Source: Amphibalanus amphitrite
Lineage: Eukaryota
Assembly: GCF_019059575.1 (NCBI RefSeq)
Contig: NW_024881521.1
Span: 601,297 to 665,296, forward strand
DNA length: 64,000 nucleotides
Direction: 5' to 3'
Part shown: in pieces, positions 8,650-63,462 of the stretch
Numbering within the stretch: position 1 is the stretch's first letter
Layout: each line of letters starts with the position of its first letter
Made by a program: the position numbers and the translations under genes
Notes under the pieces: generated by a model
Databases searched by the model: none
Seen by the model: only the letters and a program-made list of their open reading frames with translations
Told to the model about the DNA's origin: nothing

Positions 8650-9705
8650 GTGAGTCAACGGGTCTGTCGGTGATACATTGATCAATGGGTGTTGCTGATT
8701 TTCCCGGCCTCTTCTTTTTCATCAGTCATTTTCCGTGAGTCAGTCCGTTGTTCATTTAGTCGGGTAGTTATTTCAGCCAACCGGTGAGCTAGCCTGCCAG
8801 TCATTCACCGTGTCATTTACCTACCCATTCCCGGCGGCCCAACCCCACCCCTCCATATTCTGGCTGTTGGAGCCTGTTGTGGCTGGGGTTATGTAGACAG
8901 TATACACACTGTCGTTGCGGCGTTCGGTCAGTTGCCGGGCGGTGTCCGGTGGTAGTATTTCCTTTACCACCCTGTTGTGTGCAGTGTGGGCCGATGGCCT
9001 GTCGGCCCGCGATACGGCGTCGGGCGCCGTGTTACCATCCGGGCCGCCATGGCGACTGGGACGGGGTGTGGGGGCCGCCGACCATCCGATTCCCGAGACA
9101 AGGATGTGAGATGGGGTGGCCGCCTGGCGCACACGGCGTGGGCTTATCTTCACTGACGGGCTGTGTGCCAGACGCTATGTTGTGTAGCTCGCAACAGAAC
9201 AAAACGTGATTGATTAGTAAACGTAATGATAACATCCTCCTCTCCGTCTTCGCTTCTTCCTGGGCTCATTTCGCTGTGAAACTACCGCAGTATTTGGTTG
9301 TCTAACACACCATCTCCTCTCCCTTCCTCAGCTGGGCGTGGTGTGTCTGGAGCAGGGCCTCCAGGCCCAGGGACTGGAGTTGTATGCTCTAACACCCCTC
9401 CCTCCCCCTTCTCTCCTCTCTGTTACAGCTGGGCGTGGTGTGTCTGGAGCAGGGCCTCCAGGCCCAGGAACTGGAGTTGCGTACTCTAACACCCCTCCCC
9501 CTCTCTCCTCTGTTACAGCTGGGCGTGGTGTGTCTGGAGCAGGGCCTCCAGGCCGAGGAACTGGAGTTGTATGCTCTAACACCCCTCCCTCCCCCTTCTC
9601 TCCTCTCTGTTACAGCTGGGCGTGGTGTGTCTGGAGCAGGGCCTCCAGGCCCAGGAACTGGAGTTGCGTACTCTAACACCCCTCCCCCGCTCTCCTCTAT
9701 TGCAG

Positions 9706-9987
9706 CTGGGCGTGGTGTGTCTGGAGCAGGGCCTCCAGGCCGAGGCGCAGGCCTACCTGGACAGAGCGCTCGAGCACGACCCCGACCACCAGCAGGCGCT
9801 GCTCAACTCGGCGGTGATTATCCAGGAGGAGGGGCCCCCGGAGCGGCGGCCGCTCGCCTACCAGCGGCTCCACCGGCTCATCGCGCTCCGACCGTCGGCC
9901 GTCGGACTCGACAGGGTCTACTTCAACCTGGGCATGCTGGCCATGGACGACCACGACCTGGTGCCCGCCGAGGCCTGGCTCAAAAAG
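9706..9987 (+). CDS. TMTC-family exon, TPRs (LGVVCLEQGLQAEAQAYLDRALEHDPDHQQALLNSAVIIQEEGPPERRPLAYQRLHRLIALRPSAVGLDRVYFNLGMLAMDDHDLVPAEAWLKK)
   Basis: ttgcag acceptor at 9700-9705, aag|gtgagt donor; this is the last of five tandem acceptor+exon-start copies, and which copy is used in vivo cannot be told from sequence. Confidence 0.65.
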
Positions 9988-12535: not shown

Positions 12536-12667
12536 CGTACAGACGAACTTGAGCAGGTCGACGGCGTCGACACCCACAGAAGCGGCGTCTCCCCAGAAGA
12601 ACCGTAGCACCGTGACACCCTTCACCACCTCCTCCTCTTTACGCAGGTAGCCGGCGCGACAAAACTC
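12536..12667 (-). CDS. NSMCE3: NSMCE3/MAGE-like exon (EFCRAGYLRKEEEVVKGVTVLRFFWGDAASVGVDAVDLLKFVCT)
   Basis: matches MAGE homology domain C-terminus (..YLEYRQVP..YEFLWGPRA..KMKVLEFVAK pattern); gacag acceptor, acg|gtgaga donor. Confidence 0.75.
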
Positions 12668-13031
12668 CTGTCGACGTCAGAAGCCAGTTAGTCAAATCAT
12701 AGCCGGCGCGACAGAAATCCTGTCGACGTTAGACAAACTACACATTATAGCTGTCGCGACAAAACTCCTGCCAGCGTCAAACACGAAAGATCATAGCCGG
12801 CGTGACAGAACTCCAGTAACACCTCAGTGAGGCGTTCAGCTGCCGTGACAACAGTCATATCAGTCACTTATCAGTCATCAGTCACACCAGTCATTACTCG
12901 TCAGCACGGTCCGCCACCCCTGGTAAAAACCTCGGTCATACGTTCCTGACTAGCCTAATGCACTTCTCACCGGCCTCATAATTAATGGTAGTGTGAAGAG
13001 GCTGACTAGCCTCACAGCCCCATTGACTTAC

Positions 13032-29756: not shown

Positions 29757-29942
29757 CATCACTGACCTGCTGCGGCTTTCCGAGCTTGTAGTGCGCCTCG
29801 GTCTCGTCTCTGGTGAGCAGGACGCAGTTCCAAGGCGTCCAGGGCTGTTCCACGTCCCAGCGGCAGAGCAGCAGCTCATAGAGGTCCGGATCGGCGCTCA
29901 GGCAGGACTGGCCGCCCCACAGCGACAGCACCAGGTGACGGA
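29757..29942 (-). CDS. IQ-motif gene exon (ESDFRHLVLSLWGGQSCLSADPDLYELLLCRWDVEQPWTPWNCVLLTRDETEAHYKLGKPQQ)
   Basis: tgttacag acceptor, cag|gtcagt donor; ORF 29614..29961. Confidence 0.65.
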
Positions 29943-30361
29943 AATCAGACTCCTGTAACACATGAAAGACAGAGGTGGTATGTCAGACAGGACTGACCGC
30001 CCCACAGCGACAGCACCAGGTGACGGAAGTCAGACTCCTGTAACACACAGACAGAGGTGGTATGTCAGACAGGACTGGCCGCCCCACAGCGACAGCACCA
30101 GGTGGCGGAAGTCAGACTCCTGTCACAGAAACAAATACATGTGTCAGACTCATTAACCTGTCCCATACCCAGATCATAAGTCACACGTAGGCCTCGCACA
30201 CACATGGGTAGCGAAAGTCGTACACCTTTCTCACACCGTATGTAGCGAGGAAAGACTTGCCAGTGACCAAACCCCACGCACGCTCCCCGTACTTCGACTG
30301 CAGGCTGTCCTCTCTCACATATACTAGAGTACCACTGACCCGTCAGTAATCCTCCGCTGAC

Positions 30362-32669: not shown

Positions 32670-32789
32670 CTGTTTGCGCCGTTCTGCGTCGTCCACAATC
32701 CACTGGAGCACGACATCCCGCTCCCTGGCCATCCGCTGTACCCGGCGACGGGCCAGCCAGCGGCGCCAGTACTTCTGTAGAAGAATCGC
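32670..32789 (-). CDS. IQ-motif exon (AILLQKYWRRWLARRRVQRMARERDVVLQWIVDDAERRKQ)
   Basis: IQxxxRGxxxR-like calmodulin-binding motif (LQKYWRRWLARRR); ccaccacag acceptor, cag|gtcaga donor. Confidence 0.65.
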
Positions 32790-32904
32790 CTGTGGTGGAG
32801 AGCGTGAATATCGTCAGACAGGGGAGTAACACGGGCCAACCAGCGGCGCCAGTATTTTTGTAGAACGATCGCCTGTGGTGGAGAGGGAACATCGTCAGAC
32901 AATT

Positions 32905-35450
32905 GGGGCCTATTGTTGTTGTTGTTGTTGTTCCCCCTGGGACCTCCTTACGGAGGACCATAGCCGAGAGGCTCCCTATGGCGAAGGTAGCCGGCCTCCA
33001 AGGCAGCCACCAGGTCGGCGTCCCGCAGCCGCGACGGGTCGACGTGAATGCTGCCAGTTAGCCGCAGGCGGGCGCCAGCGAGGGCCGGGCAGCGGAGCAA
33101 CACGTGCTCCGGCACGTCCGCCTCTTCCCGGCACACGGCGCAGAGCGCCGTGGGGCACCGCTTATCGGGGCACTGCAGGCATGCCACGGAGGGGTGGCGG
33201 CCGATCCGGTGCAGGTATTGGAGCGAGCGGCCCCAGTGGCCCACCCTCCACTGGTGCACCGAGATGGCGGCCTCTCGGTCCTCTCCGGGGATGGGGAGCG
33301 GCAGGGTGCTCCCGAAGATAGCCTTGAAAAAGGAGTCGGGCCAGTTTTCGCGCCACTGACGTGTGGTCGTCCGATGAACTGCCCGTGTCAGGGGCCGAGC
33401 GTCCGAGGGCACGGCGCCCTGGGGCAGGGTGGCCGCTTGCTTGGCCAGGGCGTCAGCGCGCTCGTTCTCCGCCAGCCCGCAGTGAGCAGGGACCCACTGC
33501 AGGGTCACCTGCCGGCGCTCGGCAATGTCCAGCAGCGTCCTCCAGATCGCCGCGCCGAAAGTGGAGGTCTGGGCGGCCGCTCCCGCGCTGAGGAGGCTCA
33601 GGGCGGCTCGTGAGTCAGAGCACGCCACCAGCGGGGCGGGGGACGGCTCATCCCGGACCCGCTCCAGCGCCGCCCTCAGGGCGAACAGCTCCGCACGGGT
33701 GCTGGAGCAGAGGTCTCCCGCCACCACCTCAACCTCGAGAGTCTCCCCCGACGCGGTAAAGATGATGGCGCCGCCCCCTCGCCTCGCCTGACCCCAGCGT
33801 CCGCAGAGCCGTCGGACCAAATCCACGTGGCCTGGGCTGGGAGCGCCGCCAGGTGCTGCCGCGCGGCCTCTCGTCGCGTCTCGTTGGAGGAGGCTCGACG
33901 ACCGCCGGGTCCCACGTCCAGATTGAAGGCGATCGGGCGGCAGGTTGTCCACGGGAGGAGGGGAACCTCGAGGCGCGGCTCCACCGTCACTCCCTCGGCG
34001 CCCGCCTCGATCAGCGCCGATCGCCCCAGTTGTCGCCAGCCGGTGGTAGACCGCAGTCGAGTGGGTGGGTCGGCCTCCGCGACGCGGCGAAGAGGGTCGT
34101 CCTCCGGCAGGGCGAGCGCTCGGCAGAGCGTTCGCGCGGCCAGCGTCTTCCTGGTGGACCATGCTGAAGGGATGCCAGCCTCGGCCAGCAGGGGATCCCT
34201 GGGGGTGGACCTTGGGCATCCGGTCACCACCCGGGCTGCCGCCAGCAGCTCGCGCTCCACCAGCTGAACGTGTGACGGGGACGCGGCCGGGAGCCAGGCA
34301 CCCGCTGCGTATTCAAGGGCTCCCCGGACATACCCGTTCGCGACTGTCCTGAGCTGCGCCTCGCGGAGACCCCAGGCCCGGCCGGTCATCCTCCGCAGCT
34401 GTGCCGTCCGCGGCCGGACCTTCCGCCGCAGCAGAGAGTCGCAGTGGTCTTTAAAGTGTAGAAGTCTGTCGAAGGTCACCCCCAGAAGATGTAGGCTGGT
34501 GCCACCGGTGACCTGCGTGCCGTTCGCCAGGAGTTGCACGCCGCGCTCGTCCCTGCTCCGCTGAGTCAGCAGCAGCGCCTGGGTCTTCTGTCCGGCGATG
34601 GACATCTTCCAGTGCCTTGCCCATCGGGCCAGGGCGTCGGCCGACTTCTGGGCGCGAGCCACCGCAAGCTCTACGGTGGCTCCAGCGCTCAGTGTGGCCC
34701 TGTCGTCCGCATACATCAGGACGTCCGTGCGGTCCGAGGCGTTCCGCAGGGTCTCGATAAGGTCCGCCGCCCAGAGCGTGTAGATGGTCGGTGCCAGGAC
34801 CGAGCCCTGCGGCAGGCCCGCGCGGAACACGCGCTCGCTGCTGTGCGCGCCGTTGACCTCTACGCGGGCCCGCCTGCCGCGAAGGAACCGGAATTTCCAG
34901 GTCGCGAGACATCTGGGGAGGAGCTTGAGGAGCTTCAGGTGCAACATCCGGTGATCGATCGTGTCATAGGCACGGGAGAAGTCGAACGCCAGGAGGACAA
35001 AGCGGTCCGCCGTCACGCCATCCTCCGGGCCTCGTCTCGGCTTGGGGCGATTCCAGCCATCTTGAACCGTTTGGACCAAGCGGGCCAGACTGTCCTCCGC
35101 CGACCTCCCGCGGCGGAACCCGACCTGTTCGGGGGGCACCAGTCGGTCTCGCTCGATGAGGTAGGTCGTCCGGGCCGCGATCATCCGCTCCGCTAGCTTG
35201 GCGATGTGACTCGTGAGCGCGATCGGGCGGTAGCTGCCCACTTGTTTGGGGTCTTTGCCGGCCTTAAAGATAGGGATGATGGTCGCCCGTCGCCATGAGG
35301 CGGGCGTCTCGAGGTTGGACCACGATCTGTTGATGAGTGCCAGAAGGGTCCGGTAGGCCGTCGGTCCGAAGTGCCGCAGGTGTTCGGTGCATACCCGGTC
35401 CGGTCCTGGCGCCTTCTTCGTCCCGAGGTGTCGGATTTGGTCGTCGGATT
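32905..35450 (-). mobile_element. 5'-truncated, frameshifted RNase-H-containing non-LTR retrotransposon (I/R1/LOA-type): RT, RNase H, C-terminal CCHC finger
   Basis: rc ORF 33676..35676: RT motifs (GPD.., FADD-equivalent YADDRA..); rc ORF 32948..34219: RNase H (..WVPAHCGLAENERADALAK) and C..C..H..C finger; (CAA)n 3' tail at 32918-32936; ~70% GC, unlike the host introns. Confidence 0.85.
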
Positions 35451-35883
35451 GGGGCCTGTCTGTGGGAGAGACACACAGCCCAACAAACGACGCCAGTACT
35501 TCTGCAGAACGATCGCCTGCAGAGACAGCGGGAGCATAGTCAGACGCGGGGAGACAGTCACACGGGCCAGCCAGCGACGCCAGTGCTTGTGAGGAACGAC
35601 TACCTGTGAGGGCGAGGGGAAGACTGTTGGTGCGTGTGGGGGGGGGGGGGGGGCACGGCATATCAGCGAGAGGCACAGATTGTCGCTGATATGGACCAGA
35701 CCACTGTCAAGTGTCAAAATAAATTATTTTTACAAGCTAAGCGAAATATGTGAGGGTACTTGATTGTTTATGAATGGTTAAACATAGCGAAGCTAGTTAT
35801 AATTTCCAAAATCCCACACCATGGCTGTAATACTGTTTGTGAGCATGCCGCCAGTGCAAGACCCAGCGCGGCGCCGCTCTCAC

Positions 35884-41243: not shown

Positions 41244-44200
41244 CAGTAGGCGGAACTATGGTCAAGCGTACCCATTTTCGGGAACGCATTTTCGTTCCCA
41301 TGTTTGGGAACGATAAACCCAAATATGGGAACGCCATGTAGGCATTATTTAAAACAAGAAAAAGAACCGTTAAATGACGTCCAAAAAAAAAAAAAAACGA
41401 TCGTGAACCGCCTGATATTTGTCCCAATATTGTTGGGAAAGAGTTTGATATTGTAAGGCCCATCGTAGTTTCAAATCGTTCCCCTATTTCTAAAGCAGTC
41501 CATCATCCGGGCCGCGAGCCCAAATTTGGGAACGCTCTCGTACACTGGCGCTGCAAGCGTTCCTTATTATGGGAACGGCGTACCCAAAATTGGGAACGAT
41601 TTCACCGACGCCTTTCAGGGGCTCTTTTCATTAACAAGCATCACGTCCAACGCCGCAAATTATTGTTAACGCAACAATCATCAGATGACCTTTCCGGCAA
41701 GACCGTCGCATGTTACGCCCGGTCTTCTGCGCTTTTATTCCCGTCGATCTCGCAGCGGGCACGCCCCCCTCTGCAGGATTACGTAGTTCACAACGCTCAG
41801 CGATGTTCAACAAGGTCTTCCATACCTATATCCACCGTCCGCGCCGAGGGTGGAGACATGTCAAGCACCTGTCTGTTTATCACCGATAGTTGACGAGCAC
41901 AAGGAAGTATCCAAAAATGGGAACGCTGAATATGTTACACCCTCAAAACACCTAGTCCCAATGAAAATCTAGTTTTTTCCTTTCTTGATGGGTGTAAGTG
42001 GCAAAAGGCCTGGTAGGATGGGCACGAGGAATGATCGAGATCAGCATAAAAATTATAAATAAGCCACACAAAGCGACCTATATAAGAGAAATTCCCCCAA
42101 AACGATCGTGCTTAGAAACACGGAAGACAAAAATCACGCTCATGACGCTCCTTATAAAACAACGCTTAAAGGGACTGTCCCACCTTAACATTAGATTTGA
42201 GTTGAGATAGCCATCTTGATGGACGTTCTTTGAAAATCAGTGCCGTGAAAACCGTTTCTCCAGCAATTACTTCATCGCAAAGAAATTTGAGTTTGATTTT
42301 GACATCTGTGCAAATAAGTGCCACAATGTATTGGTATAGGCACTTAAATCTGATGACGTCATCAGGCTTTCGAACGTCCGTTAAATGTTTGACTAAAACG
42401 TTTTGTAGCACGCGGTGGTATATGCTGCGTTGCGCGCAACAAATGCCGCACTTTTAAATAAAGTCGCTAGGAACAGCGGAGATCCCAAAAAGTAAACAAA
42501 AGTAAAAGTCTAATATCTTCAAAACCGGTGAATATTTTTCGGTGAAATTTGGTAGATATTCGTTTTCGCTCTTTCTGAACCGAGCGACATCACTTTCATG
42601 CCAATTCATAAACTTTTTTAAAGGTGGGAGGGTCCCTTTAACAGCTAGCATCCAAATAAAATATGTCTTTCCGGGATGATAAAATACAGCTGAATAATTT
42701 TAAACCACTGAAACCGAGTTTACAACAGTAGTTCGGTAAAATCACTGACGTTCCACGCGGTCGTGCGCCCCGACACCAAAAGTCAACAATATTACCTCGG
42801 GACTGTCCGCGTGTTCGCTTGCATATGTCAGCATCTGGTGTCGCTAGTATGAAACTTCATAACCAGGCGAAAATTATTGTACTTGACCTCAAAATGTAAA
42901 AAACGCTTCATTTTCCTTAAAATTGCAAGTTAAATGTAGTATAACCCATGTTTTCACCATTCCGTCATTTCAAAAAATCATTAAAAATATCATTCGACGG
43001 TCAATTTCCTTGTGCAACGGTCAGATTAAAGATAATTTTATAGAGACTTAGTACGTAACCGGACAAATCTTCGTATGGCAATTCTTCGTCGCGCAATTCC
43101 TCGTCCGCATTTCTTCGTCCGCAAATCTTCGTCGGCGCATTTATTCGTGTCGCATAACTTCGTCTCGCATTTCTTCGTAAGCGCAAATATTCGTAGCGCA
43201 TTTTTTCGTATCCGCATTTCTTCGTACGCGCATTTCTTCGTCAAGCATTTTTTCGTCCACGCATTTCTTCGTCTACGCAAATCTTCGTCCGCATTTCTTC
43301 GTCCACGCAAATCTTCGTCTGCGCATATCTTCGTCCGCAAATCTTCGTCCCCGCAAATCTTCGTCCGCAAATCTTCGTCCGCATTTTTTCGTCCACGCAT
43401 TTCTTCGTCTACGCAAATCTTCGTCCGCATTTCTTCGTCCAGCAAATCTTCGTCCCGGCAAATCTTCGTCCGCAAATCTTCGTCCGCCAAACTTCGTCCG
43501 CAAATCTTCGTCCGCAAATCTTCGTCCGCATTTTTCGTCCACGCATTTCTTCGTCCACGCAAATCTTCGTCCGCAAATCTTTGTCTGCGCATATTTTCGT
43601 CCGCAAACCTTTGTCTCCGCTATCTTCGTCTCCGCAAACATTCGTCCACAAATGTGGTTCAATAAAACCATGAAGAAATATCAGACCATCAAGTGATTGA
43701 CGAATTTAATGCATGGAATGGATGATCGAAACTTTTGAAGTCAGGTAGATGGGGTCTGTCCGGTGAAGCTATTGTATTTGGGAGCCGAGAATTGAAACAT
43801 TCCATATCATGTGTCCCGGACATTCTTTTTTCGCGGTCGATGAATGACAATACAATCTCTTGTACCCTCGCCGGCATAGGCGGCGGAACGGGGAGGGCAC
43901 CGGGGCACCGTTCCCCTCTTTAATTTTGGCCTTTTAACAGTAGCCCTATGGGCGTTGCATGGAAAGAATGGGACTAAAAGTCGGCAGTGCCGTGCCCCCC
44001 CCCCCCCCCTAATTGAATGTGTTCCGCCGCTACTGCTCGCCGGACCTATTTGTTTTCTACATATACGCCGGCCGAGGGGGGCGGGTACGACCCCCCCCCC
44101 CCCCCATCGCCGTTTCGCCACTGGTGGAGCTAGCGCGTCGCGGAAAAAACGAGCGTGTGCGCCGTTACGAGACGCAGAGGTTAATACCCGATTTTAAGGC

Positions 44201-45925
44201 CTTCTAGGTCAGGGGTCGGCTTACAGCCCGCGGGCCGGATCCGGCCAGGAGGGTGACGGTTGGATCCGGCCCGCGACCATCTGACGTCCGGCCCGCGCAA
44301 GTTTTGTCTAGAAGTAGAATTAGACAAAAACACCCGCAAATGGTGTTTATAAACTCATGAAGTGTGCGAAGGAAGAACTATTGTGCCAAAGCACATTTAA
44401 GTCACTTTTATATCGGAGTCGATTTCTGAAGGAACCGCGGGCCGGAACACGATGTAAGTCGATGATACCAGCCGCGGGCCGGACGTCAGATGGTCGCGGG
44501 CCGGATCGAACCGTCACCCTCCTGGCCGGATCCGGCCCGCGGGCCGTAAGCCGACCCCTGACCTAGAAGGCCTTAAAATCGGGTATTAATCTCTGCGTCT
44601 CGTAACGGCGCACACGCTCGTTTTTTTCCGCGACGCGCTAGCTCCACCAGTGGCGAAACGGCGATGGGGGGAAGGGGGGGGGGGTCGTGCCCGCCCCCCC
44701 CCCTCGGCCGGCGTATATGTAGAAAACAAATAGGTCCGGCGACGGCGAGCAGTAGCGGCGGAACACATTCAATTAGGGGGGGGGGGGGCTTGGCACTGCC
44801 GACTTTTAGTCCCATTCTTTCCATGCAACGCCCATAGGGCTACTGTTAAAAGGCCAAATTAAAGAGGGGAACGGTGCCCCGGTGCCCTCCCCGTTCCGCC
44901 GCCTATGCCGGCGAGGGTACAAGAGATTGTATTGTCATTCATCGACCGCGAAAAAAGAATGTCCGGGACACAAATGATATGGAATGTTTCAATTCTCGGC
45001 TCCCAAATACAATAGCTTCACCTGACAGACCTCATCTACCTGACTTCAAAAGTTTCGATCATCCATTCCATGCATTAAATTCGTCAATCACTTGATGGTC
45101 TGATATTTCTTCATGGTTTTATTGAACCACATTTGTGGACGAATGTTTGCGGAGACGAAGATAGCGGAGACAAAGGTTTGCGGACGAAAATATGCGCAGA
45201 CAAAGATTTGCGGACGAAGATTTGCGTGGACGAAGAAATGCGTGGACGAAAAATGCGGACGAAGATTTGCAGACGAAGATTTGCGGACGAAGTTTTGCGG
45301 ACGAAGATTTGCGGACGAAGATTTGCCGGGACGAAGATTTGCGTGGACGAAGAAATGCGGACGAAGATTTGCGTAGACGAAGAAATGCGTGGACGAAAAA
45401 ATGTGGACGAAGATTTGCGGACGAAGATTTGCGGGGACGAAGATTTGCGGACGAAGATATGCGCAGACGAAGATTTGCGTGGACGAAGAAATGCGGACGA
45501 AGATTTGCGTAGACGAAGAAATGCGTGGACGAAAAAATGCTTGACGAAGAAATGCGCGTACGAAGAAATGCGGATACGAAAAAATGCGCTACGAATATTT
45601 GCGCTTACTAAGAAATGCGAGACGAAGTTATGCGACACGAATAAATGCGCCGACGAAGATTTGCGGACGAAGAAATGCGGACGAAGAATTGCGCGACGAA
45701 GAAATGCCATACGAAGATTTGTCCTGGAATCGACTTAGTAGATACTTAAATTAGCGTGCACTTTTTTGAGACGTGATGCACTAATGAGTTTTAGTGGGCG
45801 AACGGCCGAAAAATTAACTTCCGTTCTCATAAATGGGAACGCCCGTTCCCATATTTGGGAACTCCGTTCCCAAAAATGGGAACGTTCCTATATTTGGGTA
45901 CTCATGACCATAGTTCCACCTACTG
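41244..45925. mobile_element. ~4.7 kb non-autonomous TIR DNA transposon; ~30-bp TIR CAGTAGG(C/T)GGAACTATGGTCA(A/T)G(C/A)GTACC and GGGAACG subterminal direct/inverted repeats
   Basis: left terminus 41244-41273 is the reverse complement of right terminus 45897-45925; multiple T(T/A)GGGAACG motifs at 41285-41620 and 45815-45890; no transposase ORF. Confidence 0.7.
43061..45735. repeat. Foldback-like long palindrome (~2.7 kb, arms ~1.3 kb, centre ~44390); arms consist of a minisatellite of ~12-13 bp units (cgcaaatcttcgtc / cgcatttcttcgtc); centre is itself a GC-rich hairpin
   Basis: 43061-44200 is the reverse complement of 44570-45735; the RKSSSA/ADEDLRTKICG 'ORFs' on both strands are translation artefacts of the tandem array. 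Confidence 0.85.
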
Positions 45926-49257: not shown

Positions 49258-49560
49258 CCTGATCAGGGCTGCGGAGTCGATGGATTTTCGGCGACTCCGA
49301 CTCCGACTCCGGCTTTCAAAAACCAGCTCCGACTCCGACTCCGACTCCGGGCAGAATTGTCAACTCCGACCGACTCCAACTCCCAACTCCGACTCTGCAG
49401 ACCTAGCAGGGCTGCGGAGTCGACAGATTTTCGGTGACTCCGACTCCGGCTCGGGTTTCTAAAATCGACTCCGACTCCGACTCCGACTCTGGTCACAACT
49501 GTCGACTCCGACCGACTCCGACTCCGACTCCGACTCCGCAGCCCTGCATATGATCATGAC
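49258..49560. repeat. two tandem ~150-bp units, each bounded by inverted CAGGGCTGCGGAGTCG / CGACTCCGCAGCCCTG termini and filled with (GACTCC)n hexamer repeats
   Basis: direct reading; hairpin-forming minisatellite or MITE pair. Confidence 0.8.
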
Positions 49561-50900
49561 AATCAACCATTCCTGAGTAATTGCCTCCACCTATGACCGA
49601 TGTGGACATCAAATAGACCATCGTCTAATCCTAGTCCACTGAACCTATACCTATACCTATTCCTATCTCGAGACCAAGACAAGGCAAATAGCCGCGTTGT
49701 TTGGATAAGATCATAAGATAAGCCCTAGTTGCATCACATTTTTCAAAATGAATGAATTTGATTAGCATTATTAAATTACAATCCAATCATCCCAAATTGA
49801 TCAGTGCATTAGTCAAGGGAGAGTAGGCATTTCAACTTAGATAACAGGATCTAAGTTTGACAAGGGATCTTGATCTAAGAGATCTAAGAGGATCCAAGGA
49901 TCTAAGAGACAAAGGTCGACCTTTGTGCAGTATTAAGTATATATGCTGAAAGAAATAAACAGATGGCCTGATACAGATAGCCAGGTGATAACACTCAATC
50001 ACAATCATGGGGCTCAACAGTTTTGACTTGTGATGACCAAATATTGATTGATATTGACACTGTGTTTGTTCCAATGTCACAGGTTTTTTTTTACTTAATT
50101 CTTGGTGCCCTTTTGCTTTGGTTCTGTCCCAAAAAAGTGCTAAAAGTTTATAAAGTAAAGCTAGGTATTTCTATTTGCTTTTATGTGACCCAGTCATGAT
50201 CCAGCCATTTGTTGGGTGCTTATTATCTTTTTATGATTATCTGCTTTCTTCTAAATGCTGCACATTTTCATGTGTGCAAGACTAAGGCATTATTTTAATT
50301 GCATTTGCAGATAACTTGTGGCATTTCATTCTTAGAGGATGTCAAGCTGAGGTGCAATAATTGAATGGATAAGATTAATGTAAGAGGAAGAAAGAATTCA
50401 AATTGCTGTGTTAGATACACTAGAACTTCTGTATTTTGCACCAGTTGCTACTTGATATATTCACTTAGAAATGGTAAGTTTCTTCTTGTAAATAAAATTA
50501 CTTGTCCTGCTACTATTGTATTAGGCATGTTCACCACCTTGAATGTTCTCAGGTTACCTTGTTTATCATAAAAGCTGCCTAGATTTATTGTTTGATGGGG
50601 ATCAATGAGTGATGCTTAGATTGTAAGCATGCATATAACATCAATTTTAACTGCAGGTGATGGTAATGCCAGCTCCATAGTCCATGCTCATAATATTAGC
50701 ATGTGAGAATGGCAAATGCTTTTTCATGTGTGGCTTTCAAAAGCCTTTTGTCTTTCAGAATTTAGAGAGTCCATCAGCCCCACAGCTGTTGTGGCCTGTG
50801 CTCATGCAATATATACATTCAAATCATGGTCAATACCAGAGTAGGGTCATTTTTAGTTATGCTTCATGTATTAGCTGACACCGATGCCCGCTCTCTGCAG

Positions 50901-51083
50901 CGTCGGAGTCTGGCGCCGAGTCAGTTCTCGGCGCTGAAGCGGCGCTCGGACGAGTCCTGCTCCCGGGCATCTGGCAGGAAGCAGCCGGCGCTGGAAGAGG
51001 ATGGCGCCGCCGTGGTCCGCTCCCCGCTGCAGCCCATTAACGTGCCGCTCGGCGCGTCGCCCACCGGACCCGTCTCTGACTAT
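50901..51083 (+). CDS. RAD54L: RAD54L first recognisable coding exon (RRSLAPSQFSALKRRSDESCSRASGRKQPALEEDGAAVVRSPLQPINVPLGASPTGPVSDY); initiator is either the in-frame ATG at 50859 (unspliced) or lies in an upstream exon
   Basis: human RAD54L begins MRRSLAPSQLAKRK..; tctgcag acceptor at 50900, tat|gtgagt donor. Confidence 0.7.
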
Positions 51084-51407
51084 GTGAGTCGCCCTCGCGG
51101 AACCGTAACACACTAAACCCGTATGTTAATTAAACGTCAGTCGCTTGCTTGACGTGTCTGGGACACGGTGAGTCACCGATTATCTGAATCGTCCACCGGG
51201 CCCTTCTCCGTATGTGAGTCGGCGACTGGTCCCGGACGCGATGTTTAGCGCCGCCGGACCAAAGCTACGCGTAGCACACGGCAGCACACCGTAGCTACGG
51301 TTTGCTGCATGGACGTCTGTAAAGGTACACACCCATCCTGTCCCAACGGACGGGTGAGACACCCCACATCGCCCTCTCACTGCTCAATGTTCCCACTCTG
51401 TCTCCAG

Positions 51408-51611
51408 GAGGCCCGTCTGCGTCAGATCCTGTCTCGACCGTTCAAGATCCCGATCCCGAGTTACAACGGCGCGCGACTGGCGGACCGCCGACTGGGGGTG
51501 CGGCGCACGGGTGCGCGTCAGCCGCTGCACGACCCCGACGAGCCGGGCGCGCTGGTGCTCTACAGTCCGCCGCAGCTCAGCCAACACGAGCAGCTCACCA
51601 TGCAGGCGTCA
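51408..51611 (+). CDS. RAD54L: RAD54L exon (EARLRQILSRPFKIPIPSYNGARLADRRLGVRRTGARQPLHDPDEPGALVLYSPPQLSQHEQLTMQAS)
   Basis: matches human ..[61 protein letters not shown]; 3' boundary (gtgatg donor) uncertain. Confidence 0.75.
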
Positions 51612-51932
51612 GTGATGGGGAGGGAGAGGTCGGGGCTGGGGAAGCCGGAAAGGGGAAACTAGTCTGGGTCATGAGCTCCTATTCAAAAGAGAATGTTGAT
51701 GGCTGACTCGTACTTAACTCTGCCTGAGTCACTTTTGGAGTGATGGGGCAATCACTCGTTTTGACCTCGTTGATTCAGTTACACATACCCTTCCTGTCTC
51801 TTTTTTTATACAATCATTTCATTCCAGTTTTTTTACGATAGCATTTTGGAGTTTTGCAATTTTTCCGAATGTGCACTGCTGAACTCTGCTGCTGAATTGT
51901 GCGTGCCCGCCCCCTGTTTCAGTGACAAGCAG

Positions 51933-51992
51933 CTGGTACACGTGGTGGTGGATCCGGCGCTAAGTAATGTGCTGCGGCCCCATCAGCGGGAG
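51933..51992 (+). CDS. RAD54L: RAD54L exon ([20 protein letters not shown])
   Basis: matches [21 protein letters not shown]; acceptor aagcag (alternative tttcag 10 nt upstream), gag|gtgagt donor. Confidence 0.75.
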
Positions 51993-52248
51993 GTGAGTCG
52001 CCCTGTCTTCTCTCCTCCCCCTCTCCCAGAGTCGGTTTTGTAAGGAAGTACGTTACGTCCCAATCCCTCACAGGGCTGGAATTATTAGGGGTCGTATAAA
52101 GTTTGTCCGCCTGTTCGTCGGTGACAAAGCATGAGTCAGCTTTTGTCCATGATAGGATTTGTCTGCATGATCTGTTTCTGCTCATCGCCGTGCCCTACTG
52201 CTCACAACAATCCCCGCGGCATCACGTTCACCTGTCCGTCTCCTCCAG

Positions 52249-54703: not shown

Positions 54704-54854
54704 GTCACGGCAAATCGACTCAGTCGGCGCTGTCCGCCATCACCAGTCTGAAGAAGCTGTGCAACCACCCGGACCTGATCTACGAGAAGGTCACTGAGCC
54801 GGGCAGTGAGCTGCGCCATCTGCTGCAGCTCTATCCAGACGGACACTCGACAAA
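54704..54854 (+). CDS. RAD54L: RAD54L exon (GHGKSTQSALSAITSLKKLCNHPDLIYEKVTEPGSELRHLLQLYPDGHST-)
   Basis: matches ..SSITSLKKLCNHPALIYDK..; cgccag acceptor, aa|gtgagt donor. Confidence 0.85.
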
Positions 54855-55396
54855 GTGAGTCGGGGACTCGGGAGGCAGAGCTAACTCAGACAGTCAGACG
54901 GACACTCGACAGAGTGAGTTAGAGAGTCAAGACGAACTCAGACAGATACTCCGTGAGTTTGTCAGGGATGACAGTCCTGCCCAGACGGACTCGCGATATT
55001 AGAGGCTGTCGGAAACTAGCAAGGTCCGTATAGGTTACAAAGTAGGGGCATCCCGTGAAGCAACTGAATGACTAACCTGCAAACACCACCACAGTATATC
55101 ATTCTCCCCTCCTGTGTCCACCAGGCGTGTCCGCGTCCACTCGTATCTGAAATTCCGCAGTCCGCACCCGCCTGTCCGCCAGACGAGTCCGTCCGGAGCT
55201 GTCCGGCAGCTGGGTGTCTGTGTCAATATCTACCCGCCCCTGTCCTCCAGGAGAGTCCGTCCGGACCTGTCCGGCAGGGTGTCTTTGTCCTCTAATATCT
55301 ACCCGCCCCTGTCCTCCAGGCGAGTCCGTCCGGAGTTGTCCGGCAGGGTGTCTGTGTCTTCTGATGTGTCTAATACCCCCTCCCTGTGTCCACTAG

Positions 55397-55595
55397 ACGC
55401 GTCCGTCCGGAGCTCTCCGGCAAGGTGTCGGTGCTGGACTACCTGCTGGCCCTGGTGAAGACGCAGACCAGCGACAAGGTGGTGCTCGTCTCCAACTACA
55501 CGCAGACACTCGACCTGTTCGAGACCCTCTGCCAGATGCGCAGCTACTGCTTCGTCCGGCTCGACGGCAGCATGACCATCAAAAAACGCGCCAAG
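55397..55595 (+). CDS. RAD54L: RAD54L exon ([67 protein letters not shown])
   Basis: matches [65 protein letters not shown]; acceptor (cactag) is the last of four tandem copies. Confidence 0.85.
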
Positions 55596-59714: not shown

Positions 59715-62700
59715 TTATGTCATTGCTCTCCCTCGTCCGACACTCCAGCGGACCAACTCACCGTCCGCAGTGTAGTACGAAGGCATCCGCTGAGCAGCAC
59801 TCGCTGCCGCACTACTCCTCTCTGGCGCGGCTGGGGAGCCGTCCACAATCCGTCGCTGCTGCTGCTGCTGCGGTGCCGGCCGCGCCGCCGCCGGGGCTGC
59901 CGGCCGGCCGCCGAGCGCCGCACTCAGCGCTGCACTGAGCACATCCCTCGCCGGCTCACCAGCCGCGTACAGTCCCGACTGACCGCTGGTTGGGGCCGAG
60001 TCCTGACGGGGCAGCGAGCTGCGGCGGCCCGCCGACCCGGCAGATACACCCGGGTAGTGGGGCTGCGCGCGGCCTGCCGCCTGGCTCAGCTGGGCCAGGG
60101 GGTCGGTCCGGGAGGCGGCCGAATCGTGACGAGACACGGCGTGACCGAGCAGGTCGTGACGTGACGACGCCGAGCCGAGATCTCGAGACAGATGACCAAG
60201 GGCGGGGTCATGTCTGGAGGTGGGCTGACTCAGGGAGTCACGCCGGCCGCCGGACTGACTCGGGAGCGACTCTGGGCGGAGAGTCGACTGACCGAACGAG
60301 TCCCGCCGTGAGCTGAGTCCCAGTGGTGGCTCCTGTCGTGGCGAGCCATGTGAGAGCTGAGAGTCGGAGCGGGAAAGGCGACTCTCCTGGCGGGGACTCT
60401 GGTGAGAGAGCAGGTGGGGGTCCTGACGGGAGCTCTGATGGGTGAGATGGGGGTCCTGGCGGAGTCCCTGGTGAGAAAGGTGGGGCTCCTGCCGAGGACT
60501 GGGGTGATTCAAATGGGAATCCTGCCGAGGGCTGGGATGATTCAAATGATGATCTTGGCGAGGACTAGGATGATTCAAATGATGGTCCTGACGGGGACTA
60601 GGGTGATTCATATGGGAATCCTGGCGGGGACTGGGATGGTTCAAATGATGATCTTGCCGGGGACTCGGGTGATTCAAGTGGGGATCCTGGCGGGGACTGG
60701 GCTGGTTCATGTAGGACTCCTGCCGTGGACTCGGATGGCCCGCATGAGGCTCTTGCCGCGGACTCCTCTGAATAAGCTGCGGCTCCTGCCGCGGACTGCG
60801 ATGGCTGAAATGCGTCTCTTGGCGAGCACTGGGCTGGCTAAAATGCGACTCCTGCCGTGCACTGGGTTGGCTGAAGTGTGGCTCCTGCCGCGGACTTGGC
60901 TGGCTGAAGTGAGGTTCTTGTCGCGGGCTCGGCTGACTGAAATGAGGTTCTTGCCTCGGACTGGGCTGGTTGAAGTGCGGTTCTTGCCTGGGGCTGGGCT
61001 GACTGAAGGTGGAGTCCCGCCGCCCGCTTTGTTGGCTGACCGCCTGCTCATGTCTCGAGCCGAACCCACCCGTCAGCTGGGGGTCCGCGCGGCCCACGCC
61101 GTGCTGCGCGAACACCGGCGGGCGGTGGTGTGGCGAGGCCGGTGACGGCGGGTTGGGCGCCGGCGGCGGCGGCGCCGGGTCAGCGCGCGGCGCAAAGTGC
61201 GCCATCAGACCCTCGGCCTGCTCAATCCTGGAGCGGGGCGCCGGATCGGCGCGGGCCCCGCCGCCACCCGGCCGGTGTCCGCCGCCGTACGGGTCCGGAC
61301 TGAAGGCTGAGCGGGATACAGCCGGCTGCTGCTGCTGCGGCTGCTGACGGGTCGGCTGCTGAGGCGCCGAGCCGCCCTCAAACGCTGCCAGAACCGCAGA
61401 ACGGGACGGCGCAAAACCGCTCTGAAGATTGGTGGCCACAGATCGTGCCGGCGATACTGGCTGCATCTCCGGCGAGAACGGCGACGAATGGGTGCCACTG
61501 AACGGCGAGCCCACTGACGTGCCCTCCGGGGAGAAAATGTCCGCCTGGCGCGCCGCCAGCTGGAGAATGCTGCTGCGTGCCGGCGGAGAGGCTGCCTCCT
61601 TCAGCTGGTTGAAGCTCATCAGGTCCTTGATCACACAGTCGAGCTCCTCGTTCAGCTGGCCACCGCCACCAGACAGGTCCAGACCCTGGTCGGCGGGCGG
61701 CTCGGGCGGCGGCGGGGGCGGCTGGGGCGGGGGCGGCGGCGGGGGCGGCGGCTCGGCGGGCGGCTCTGGCACCGGTGGCTGCCGGCGGGAGTCTCCGCCG
61801 CCCCGACCGTCCGTCAGACTGGAGCGCCGGCCGGCTCTGGCGGTCTCAGCCGGCTCCGACCAGCACTCACCACTGGGGCGGCGCTCCCCGTCCGTCAGCG
61901 GCGAGAAGAAACTGTTTGTGATACTGTCCGTGCTCGCCTGCCGACCGCTCAGGATCGCATCCATGGCGGCCGCTCCCACACTGTCCGCACTGGCTGTCCG
62001 GGCCCGCTCGGGCGCCTCGTCCCTGACACCACTGTCCTCCCCGCCCCCTCTGCTGATCACCGAGCCGCCGCGGTCGCCCCCGACAGTCCGTCCCCCTATC
62101 ACCTCCTCCTCCCAGGGTGCTGATACACGGCCGTCACCGGCGCTGTCCAGCGCCGCCAGCCGCTCCGTCAGACTGTCCGTGCTCGGCCGGCGCACAGACA
62201 GGTCGGCCGCAGCCGTGGTCGGAGTGCCAGACTCCGAGCTGGTGCGTCGCCGGCCCACCGTCGGCTCCGGGCTCACACACAGCGAGAAGTCTGCCTCGCT
62301 GCCACCCATGATGGAAGCCACCGCGTCGTTCATTTCGGCTTCATTGATCTCCCGGAAGCGTTTCTTTTTCTCTGCCTCCGCGGCGGCGGTTGCAGCTGCG
62401 GCTGCTGTCGCTGCCTCGTCGTCCGTCGGCTCGACCCCGGCCGCAGCCGTCGGCTGGCTCTGAGATCTGCCATACAGGTGGATCTTCTTGGGGCTGTGGT
62501 GACGGTCGGCGGCGGGCTGCTGCGGCGCGGCCGGCGCGCGAGGCTCGGCGGCCCGCAGCTGCTCCGGGGACGGCAGCAGCGGCGGCCCGCCGGCGCCACT
62601 GAGACTGGCGCGGCGCGGTGGCGACCGATCGGCGGGGGTGGCGGCGGGAGCGGCAGATGAGGCGTTAGCAGCGGCAGCGGCGGCGGAGGCATTAGCAGCG

Positions 62701-63249
62701 GCAGCCGCCTCCTGCTGTCGTTGCTCGTGAGAACGCTGAGCCGAGCTGCTCATCCCCTGCCGCAGTTTCTCCAGCTCCAGCTGAAATCCTGACGTCACCG
62801 CCGGAGTTTCCACCGGAGGTACTGTTGCGGCAGGGGGCGCCGCCGCGGCCACCGGCGCAGCGGGCACGGCGCTCGGGGCAGAGGTGACGGCAGGACTGGC
62901 TGCAGCCGGATCCCTGGCCGGCGCGGCGGGAGGGGTGGCAGCGGGCGCAGAAGGCGCCGCCGCAGCCGCCGGCGGGGTCCCACCGTTCTGGAGCCGGTGT
63001 TTCGGGCTGGTAGGCCGGGTCGTCTGATGAGCGGCCTGATGGGCGGCTGGAGGTGCAGAGCTCCGCTCAGATCCGCCGCTTGAGGGATGCGAGTGCTTTG
63101 GTCGCTTCTCGCCTGGTTTGCGGCCGGGCCCCGAAGGCTTTGAGCTATCAGACTCCGGCTTTGGACTGCGCTTCTTCTTCATCGTCTTTCGTTGTAAGTT
63201 GGTGGCGTCATCAAAGGCAGTCTGGAGCCGTTTCAACTCCGCCTTATAC
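59715..63249 (-). CDS. 3.5-kb terminal coding exon of a Pro/Ser/Ala-rich low-complexity protein (~1178 aa from this exon); contains tandem 11-aa coding repeats (QPSPRQEPHFS x~7, then NHPSPRQDHHL x~7)
   Basis: rc ORF 59715..63263 with no stop across 3.5 kb of 70% GC sequence; upstream tttgtctgtttacag acceptor at 63250-63264 implies the exon begins at about 63249 (phase 2); stop at 59715-17. Confidence 0.7.
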
Positions 63250-63462
63250 CTGTAAACAGACAAACACGGAACCCGTCAACTAATGAAGAATCATCAGGCA
63301 AAACATGCCCATGTGCGATATCATCAACATTCGCGACGCGTAGTGTTTCCCTCTCGTTCTCTTCTTCCCCTTCCCTCTAACTACCTGACGACCTCAGTAC
63401 TGCTGTCCTCCGGTACCCGCGCCCTCCCTCACTCACTCTCTCCAATCTAGGCATCCACCCAC

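Follow-up and report, generated by a model that had tools for sequence, protein, structure and literature searches.

The end of a RAD54L coding exon and the donor site that follows it occur a second time inside the adjoining intron: as the initial annotation of this DNA had claimed, a second copy of the exon end and the 5' splice site is present there, and alignment and shuffled controls indicate that it is homologous to the authentic junction. We consider it likely that this copy is a decayed, lineage-specific duplicate of the RAD54L donor junction, originating from the same local process as seven other exon-border repeats of the window, i.e. the whole 64 kb stretch of DNA that has been analysed. 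Under this reading, a local duplication process would have copied the segment made of the exon end and the donor into the intron, in the manner of a mirage-type junction minisatellite; the copy next to the exon would have stayed the coding end and the donor, and the downstream copies would be left to drift in the intron. The RAD54L copy is probably an inert, neutral pseudo-donor relic of a process that shows marked activity in this genome.

The host gene, a metazoan RAD54L, is located on the + strand of the window at approximately 50.9-57.2 kb, where human RAD54L, used as a tblastn query, matches in 12 collinear segments with 40-89% identity; its introns are 250-542 nt long when they are set by frame-keeping GT-AG junctions. 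The GC3 of the gene is 0.84 and the GC content of the window is 0.526; the GC3 and GC of amphioxus lie well below these values. The coding exon under study is located at positions 50901..51083 (+), with an uncertain 5' limit, and its translation (RRSLAPSQFSALKRR...PTGPVSDY, beginning with RRSLAPSQ) fits the N-terminus of RAD54; it ends in GACTAT at position 51083, and the donor GT follows at 51084-51085. The intron that contains the pseudo-junction copies occupies positions 51084..51407 (+; 324 nt, phase 0), and the next exon, which starts with EARLRQILSRPFKIPIPSY, occupies positions 51408..51607 (+). Only the donor at 51084 preserves the reading frame into this next exon, the start of which has been set by tblastn and by two intronless relatives.

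These relatives are RAD54L-derived copies on two contigs of one ENA metagenome assembly, called L001 (9879-10839) and L002 (1170-1916); the copies are intronless and partly lost through internal deletions, and they are 68-86% identical in DNA sequence to the RAD54L exons of the window. At their exon-exon join, GACTAT (in L002) or AACTGT (in L001) is located directly before GAAGCGCGGCTGCGT, so that the canonical junction GACTAT/GAAGCG (the slash marks the border) is present in an intronless RAD54L copy of a relative; because both contigs join the two exons directly, the RAD54L junction 51083/51408 is confirmed in a relative, though these are the relative's intronless copies and the relative may lack the duplication. 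Protein searches with RAD54L, in a database that covers eukaryotes unevenly, have returned no close named relative, and an exact look-up of ten open reading frames of the window in the protein collection has matched none of them; when an orthologous intron was sought, the RAD54L-like copies obtained by protein search were all intronless, and a scan of JGI metagenomes returned only distant homologues, with 37-62% identity. A 142-nt CGACTC-rich repeat is located at positions 49264-49545, 1.4 kb upstream of the RAD54L exon, and is 73-78% identical to positions 378-707 of L002, which precede the intronless copy in the corresponding place; because of this match, the L002 copy is perhaps a duplicate of the locus and not a simple retrocopy, but the repeat may alternatively be just a common element.

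The exon had initially been labelled exon 1, and this label is doubtful. At positions 50471..50479 (+) there is an ATG/GTAAGT, a candidate upstream exon end that contributes only the start codon; joined to the acceptor-like cccgctctctgcag (its cag at 50898-50900), this ATG gives the canonical MRRSLAPSQ, and exon 50901..51083 would then be exon 2. ATG/GTAAGT matches occur twice in the window, compared to an expected 0.28. On the other hand, both intronless relatives can be aligned over approximately 30 nt upstream of position 50901, to about 50871, and since this stretch is common to the two of them, some transcripts are suggested to include it.

The best local alignment pairs positions 51057-51091 (TCGCCCACCGGACCCGTCTCTGACTATGTGAGTCG) with positions 51189-51221 (TCGTCCACCGGGCCCTTCTCCG--TATGTGAGTCG), with 29 matches in 33 aligned positions, four mismatches and one 2-nt gap (88% identity). 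The homology covers the last 27 bases of the exon and the first 8 bases of the intron, and its limits are sharp on both sides. Copy 1 (51057..51091, +) is the authentic junction, consisting of the 27 nt of exon and GTGAGTCG, with the donor GT at 51084-51085; copy 2 (51189..51221, +) is the pseudo-junction, consisting of a decayed exon end and TAT/GTGAGTCG, with its GT at 51214-51215. The donor GTs of the two copies are spaced by 130 nt, and the 35-nt segments are 130-132 nt apart. The duplicated junction is therefore, as was originally noticed, a donor, with the GT intact in the copy; the position that had been assigned to the second copy (51195-51225) is off by one and should read 51194-51224, the copy itself being real.

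The self-alignment that had been proposed as a check has been run, and its score of 39 lies well above the shuffled controls: 5000 dinucleotide-preserving shuffles gave 16.5 +/- 2.4 with a maximum of 34, none of them reaching 39 (Gumbel p ~4e-6), and after roughly 800 comparable comparisons across the window, an estimated p ~0.004 is left. The objection that the identity would be no better than chance for GC-rich sequence has thus been tested and does not hold. The part of the objection that concerns the donor consensus can be followed more closely, since a shared consensus could in itself produce some resemblance: the 11-mer TATGTGAGTCG, i.e. TAT/GTGAGTCG, located at 51081-51091 and at 51211-51221, is not significant alone (20 out of 100 shuffles give at least two matches), and GTGAGTCG, which occurs four times in the window, always on the + strand within RAD54L, belongs to three real donors (51084, 51993 and 54855) besides copy 2, and so starts two other RAD54L introns. 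For these reasons, it is the exonic part that carries the signal, and upstream of the donor it matches at 18 of 22 positions. This exonic agreement, the position of the full alignment above all shuffles and the fact that copy 2 follows the exon of the window's lineage and not that of the relatives, leave chance resemblance a negligible probability; the match of copy 2 is no artefact of composition. As a separate observation, the introns that start at 51084 and 51993 share their 12 initial bases (GTGAGTCGCCCT).

Repeats of comparable strength are found in 4.8% of the 81-nt blocks of the window, which have a local repeat scoring at least as high as this one, so that local duplication is a frequent occurrence in this genome. 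The top-scoring blocks are mostly located within tandem arrays that are listed by TRF.

The 35-nt segment is probably present a third time, in weaker form. The initial annotation had reported a partial copy at 51168, which exists but, at positions 51167-51178, starts one base below the coordinate that was given for it, its GT being at 51168; the similarity is longer than was seen then, comprising positions 51150..51176 (+), with the sequence GACGTGTCTGGGACACG/GTGAGTCACC, inside the spacer between copies 1 and 2. Compared to positions 51067-51093, it matches at 19 of 27 positions, which is marginal (P = 0.014), and the k-mer self-similarity that remains without copy 2 is marginal as well (P = 0.05-0.08).

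The spacer, which we refer to as B, comprises 97 nt (51092..51188, +) and is unique in the window, the layout of the locus being A-B-A' (35-97-33 nt) and not a head-to-tail array: TRF over positions 50500-52000 has detected no array at the junction, even at score 30. A BLAST search with the spacer against the window and the two contigs has given only chance-level hits of at most 14 nt, and the alignment of the spacer with positions 51222-51407 is no better than that of shuffles, so no second B follows copy 2. This result rules out a simple 132-nt tandem duplication. Since B has no counterpart, a single slippage or unequal-exchange event is not sufficient to produce A-B-A', unless it was followed by deletion or replacement. 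There are three routes by which the layout could have arisen: an old array of units of approximately 42-46 nt, the middle copies of which have decayed (with the GTs at 51084, 51168 and 51214, and the weak copy in B, as its traces); a 132-nt tandem duplication and subsequent loss of the second B; or a short templated insertion during break repair.

The same layout bears on whether the duplicate shares its origin with the other repeats of the window. It could be equally neutral and have arisen by another route, either as a templated insertion of approximately 33-35 nt or through a 97-nt filler or mobile insertion with a long target duplication, and the unique B within A-B-A', the sharp limits of homology at exon position -27 and intron position +8, and the lack of a TRF array at the junction would all fit such an event. 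The spacer, however, has no second copy in the window or at the related loci and is not bounded by terminal inverted repeats; when it was considered as a transposon with a target-site duplication, neither a terminal inverted repeat nor another copy was found in the 64 kb and the two contigs. It also appears to hold a decayed junction copy, which fits an old multi-unit array better, and seven plain tandem junction arrays are located nearby. We therefore regard a separate origin as unlikely, and a shared local process remains the preferred reading.

The polarity of the changes between the two copies has been read with the intronless relatives L001 and L002 as the outgroup. Copy 2 and the exon of the window share CCACC and (A/G)CCC, at which the two relatives have CGGCC and ACCT, and the duplication has therefore arisen in the window's own lineage. 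Derived changes in copy 2 are GGA>GGG, GTC>TTC and a 2-nt deletion; the only change of the exon itself relative to the relatives is a synonymous one, TCC>TCT, and the direction of the fourth difference between copy 2 and the exon is ambiguous. As far as the letters can tell, this pattern is what would be expected of a coding copy under constraint and an intronic copy that drifts.

The reading frame downstream of the exon limits what the additional donors could do. Read-through from the exon gives ...SDYVSRPRGTVTH and then a TAA at positions 51114..51116 (+), 31-33 nt into the intron, which is the end of the open reading frame 50826..51116. If the donor at 51168 were used, the exon would be extended by 84 nt, and if the donor at 51214 were used, by 130 nt with a frameshift; both extensions retain the TAA, and any use of a downstream site would be expected to yield a transcript with a premature stop. 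Because the in-frame TAA is kept and the 130-nt extension shifts the frame, the downstream GTs are pseudo-donors that give no protein isoform, and we infer that the duplicate has no role other than to make the intron longer and to provide cryptic sites.

Considered as donors, the downstream sites are not weak. According to an approximate Shapiro-Senapathy matrix, the real donor and that of copy 2, which have the identical 9-mer TAT/GTGAGT, both score approximately 72, while the donor at 51168 (ACG/GTGAGT), the most consensus-like in the intron, scores approximately 85 and a GTGAGA at 51354 approximately 78; GTGAGT occurs in the intron at three sites (51084, 51168 and 51214). By analogy with the VNTR of human F7 and with the mirages of amphioxus, the spliceosome would pick the upstream site at 51084, but the stronger appearance of the 51168 donor speaks against the silence of the pseudo-sites. 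A proximity rule for duplicated donors, said to come from Reed and Maniatis in 1986, would favour the downstream site.

If copy 2 acted as an alternative 5' splice site or as a decoy for U1 binding, the output of RAD54L could be tuned by unproductive splicing and nonsense-mediated decay, or a weak donor could be defined by it; the shared 9-mer, the stronger site at 51168, the presence of three GTGAGT and of the GTGAGA at 51354, and the better preservation of copy 2 compared to its flanks are consistent with such a function. Nevertheless, the TAA at 51114 would stay in the transcript whichever downstream site were used, and the 2-nt deletion and the two further changes that only copy 2 carries are what neutral drift would be expected to produce. 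The structure searches also give no sign of a regulatory element: RNA folding is not significant for 51050-51420 (z = -1.3) or for 51240-51325 (z = -1.2), and Rfam gives no match at gathering score across the window and none at E <= 1 for positions 50800-51500. The published analogues are silent as well (PMC3087553; PMC3902484; PMC1557585). A function in splicing is thus very unlikely in our judgement, and we retain the reading of copy 2 as a neutral relic. Elsewhere in the intron, there are two palindromes, a perfect one of 12 nt, GCTACGCGTAGC (51264-51275), and a near-perfect one of 28 nt without a loop (51281-51308); the RNA fold predicted for this region is not significant.

The RAD54L donor is one of eight exon-border duplications in the 64 kb, the other seven being located on the acceptor side in six cases and on the donor side in one; it is thus one local instance of a habit of the whole genome and is not peculiar to this exon. 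Two of the other seven are found within RAD54L itself. In a scan in which each junction of the 12 mapped introns of the gene was compared with its own intron, a significant copy was obtained for only three junctions, with z = 9.4 for the donor under study, z = 12.4 for the donor at 54854 and z = 17.7 for the acceptor at 55397. The repeat on the donor side of the later intron (54836-54996, +) has the sequence CAGACGGACACTCGACAAA/GTGAGT, the real exon end being at 54854; a copy that matches at 24 of 25 positions is located 59 nt downstream, at 54895, with intronic tails that can be aligned (77%), and a partial third copy is located at about 54982. The acceptor array (55094-55439, +) consists of units of approximately 69 nt that continue up to the real acceptor at 55397 (TRF: 55171-55362, 2.8 copies, 86%); each unit comprises a CTAAT-like branch motif, a pyrimidine tract, the AG and roughly 38-39 nt from the start of the exon, and the pseudo copies still encode RVRPELSG-like peptides.

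The remaining five are acceptor arrays outside RAD54L, for which only open reading frames and splice signals indicate the exon. Two belong to the same TMTC-like gene on the + strand, namely 1898/1964 (1898-2007), with two copies 66 nt apart, and 9307-9745, with five copies that alternate between 90 and 97 nt and reach identities of up to 100%; in both arrays, the last copy enters an open coding exon. The three arrays of the - strand are located at 12644-12817 (four copies), at 29882-30131 (three copies) and, next to an IQ-motif exon, at 32748-32901 together with 35475-35616, with periods of 46-52, 82-85 and 83-87 nt, respectively; the last of them is split by a LINE, which must therefore have been inserted into an existing array. 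In every case of the window, the authentic site is the copy adjacent to the exon, and the identity between the real and the pseudo copies at the other loci, mostly about 77-91%, is comparable with the 88% that is found here.

Of the eight arrays of the window with an intrinsic period of at least 40 nt, six are acceptor-junction arrays, the other two being the CGACTC-rich repeat (49264-49545) and a repeat in coding sequence (60480-61008). In the six acceptor arrays, the unit has an intronic part of 28-57 nt and an exonic part of 20-54 nt, and its start precedes a branch-point-like CTRAY/TAAC motif by 0 to about 20 nt, in most of them by no more than about 10 nt.

Several further elements of the window have been noted. 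The LINE mentioned above is a GC-rich (~70%) non-LTR element located at 32948-35676 (-), with RVT_1 and RNase H domains; the best named relatives of its reverse transcriptase (33.7-35.7 kb) are from the barnacle Amphibalanus amphitrite (54-60%), followed by spiders (29-39%), and the search has given no hit from Branchiostoma, in a database that covers eukaryotes unevenly. Together with the GC3 of RAD54L, this result makes an amphioxus origin of the DNA, which the mirage pattern had suggested, unlikely, and a crustacean origin possible. One ENA metagenome fragment is 97% identical to the LINE over half the query. Two arrays of approximately 590 nt, located at 43064-43653 and 45131-45721, are built from a unit of 14-16 nt (CAAATCTTCGTCCG) in inverted orientation and flank approximately 1.5 kb of GC-richer DNA, an arrangement similar to that of subterminal repeats in DNA transposons. 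The protein encoded by an open frame of 1182 codons at 59715-63263 (-), with approximately 70% GC, is of low complexity and comprises about 25 tandem 11-residue repeats of the type SPRQEPHxxQP; its sole Pfam match is a weak one to TFIIA.

Taken alone, the RAD54L locus is of minor consequence: one intron has become longer by about 130 nt and has gained two cryptic donors, from which only stop-containing transcripts can result. The density of junction repeats, in a genome that may not be that of a cephalochordate, is more interesting than the single locus, since eight duplicated splice junctions in 64 kb constitute a dense sample, where previously only a handful of amphioxus genes had been available. 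In such arrays, identical sites are in competition in cis, which makes them natural experiments on how a splice site is chosen; they also provide material from which new exons, displaced intron borders and cryptic splicing can develop, and gene prediction can be misled by them.

A bolder view of the same repeats would be that junction-anchored duplication is a directed, genome-wide mutational process acting outside cephalochordates, possibly in a barnacle-like crustacean, of which the copy at 51189-51221 would be one footprint. The make-up of the acceptor units suggests that the mechanism might be linked to transcription or splicing, and the duplications might then arise from repair templated by splicing intermediates or from breaks at R-loops over exon borders. 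We put this view forward as rather improbable.

To our knowledge, the class of repeats known as mirages has been described in cephalochordates only. Mirages of amphioxus are tandem duplications that span exon-intron boundaries, at 5' and 3' boundaries alike, and leave normal splicing undisturbed; their copy number differs between haplotypes, and the mechanism of their formation is unknown (PMC3087553; PMC3902484). Many genes are affected, and the reported cases are Adh3, troponin C, the globins BflGb6 and BflGb9, and PGBD5; the similarity among the copies is 81-100% in BflGb6, and the copies of PGBD5 are imperfect (PMC3087553; PMC3902484). The RAD54L repeat resembles them in that its unit crosses the border between exon and intron and contains the splice signal, and in that the authentic site adjoins the exon and the extra copies are located within the intron; the seven other loci of the window show the textbook head-to-tail form. 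It differs from them in its A-B-A' layout with a unique 97-nt B, which is not head to tail, and in its host, which is probably no cephalochordate, so that the term mirage is used here for a structural class and is not bound to a taxon. Because contiguous tandem units are absent, we file the RAD54L copy as a degenerate member of this class.

The closest parallel for the donor side is found in intron 7 of human F7, where the first unit of a 37-bp VNTR spans the donor of exon 7 and identical pseudo-donors follow downstream (PMC1557585). Only the most upstream donor is used in splicing, even when the downstream ones are strengthened, and it is this selection of the first site that keeps the pseudo-donors silent (PMC1557585). 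In F7 as in RAD54L, the first element spans the boundary, and the donor sequence of RAD54L copy 2 is the same as that of the real donor; the F7 array, however, is contiguous and polymorphic, whereas RAD54L has two good copies 130 nt apart and a weak one, and the silence of the F7 pseudo-donors is experimental, whereas that of the RAD54L sites is suggested by analogy. A relation can also be drawn with the Rogers model, reportedly taken up by Hellsten et al. in 2011, in which the tandem duplication of an exon segment that contains AGGT is said to create an intron. In both settings a local duplication adds splice signals; there, however, a new intron is formed within an exon, while in RAD54L an existing intron has been lengthened and the coding sequence is unchanged.
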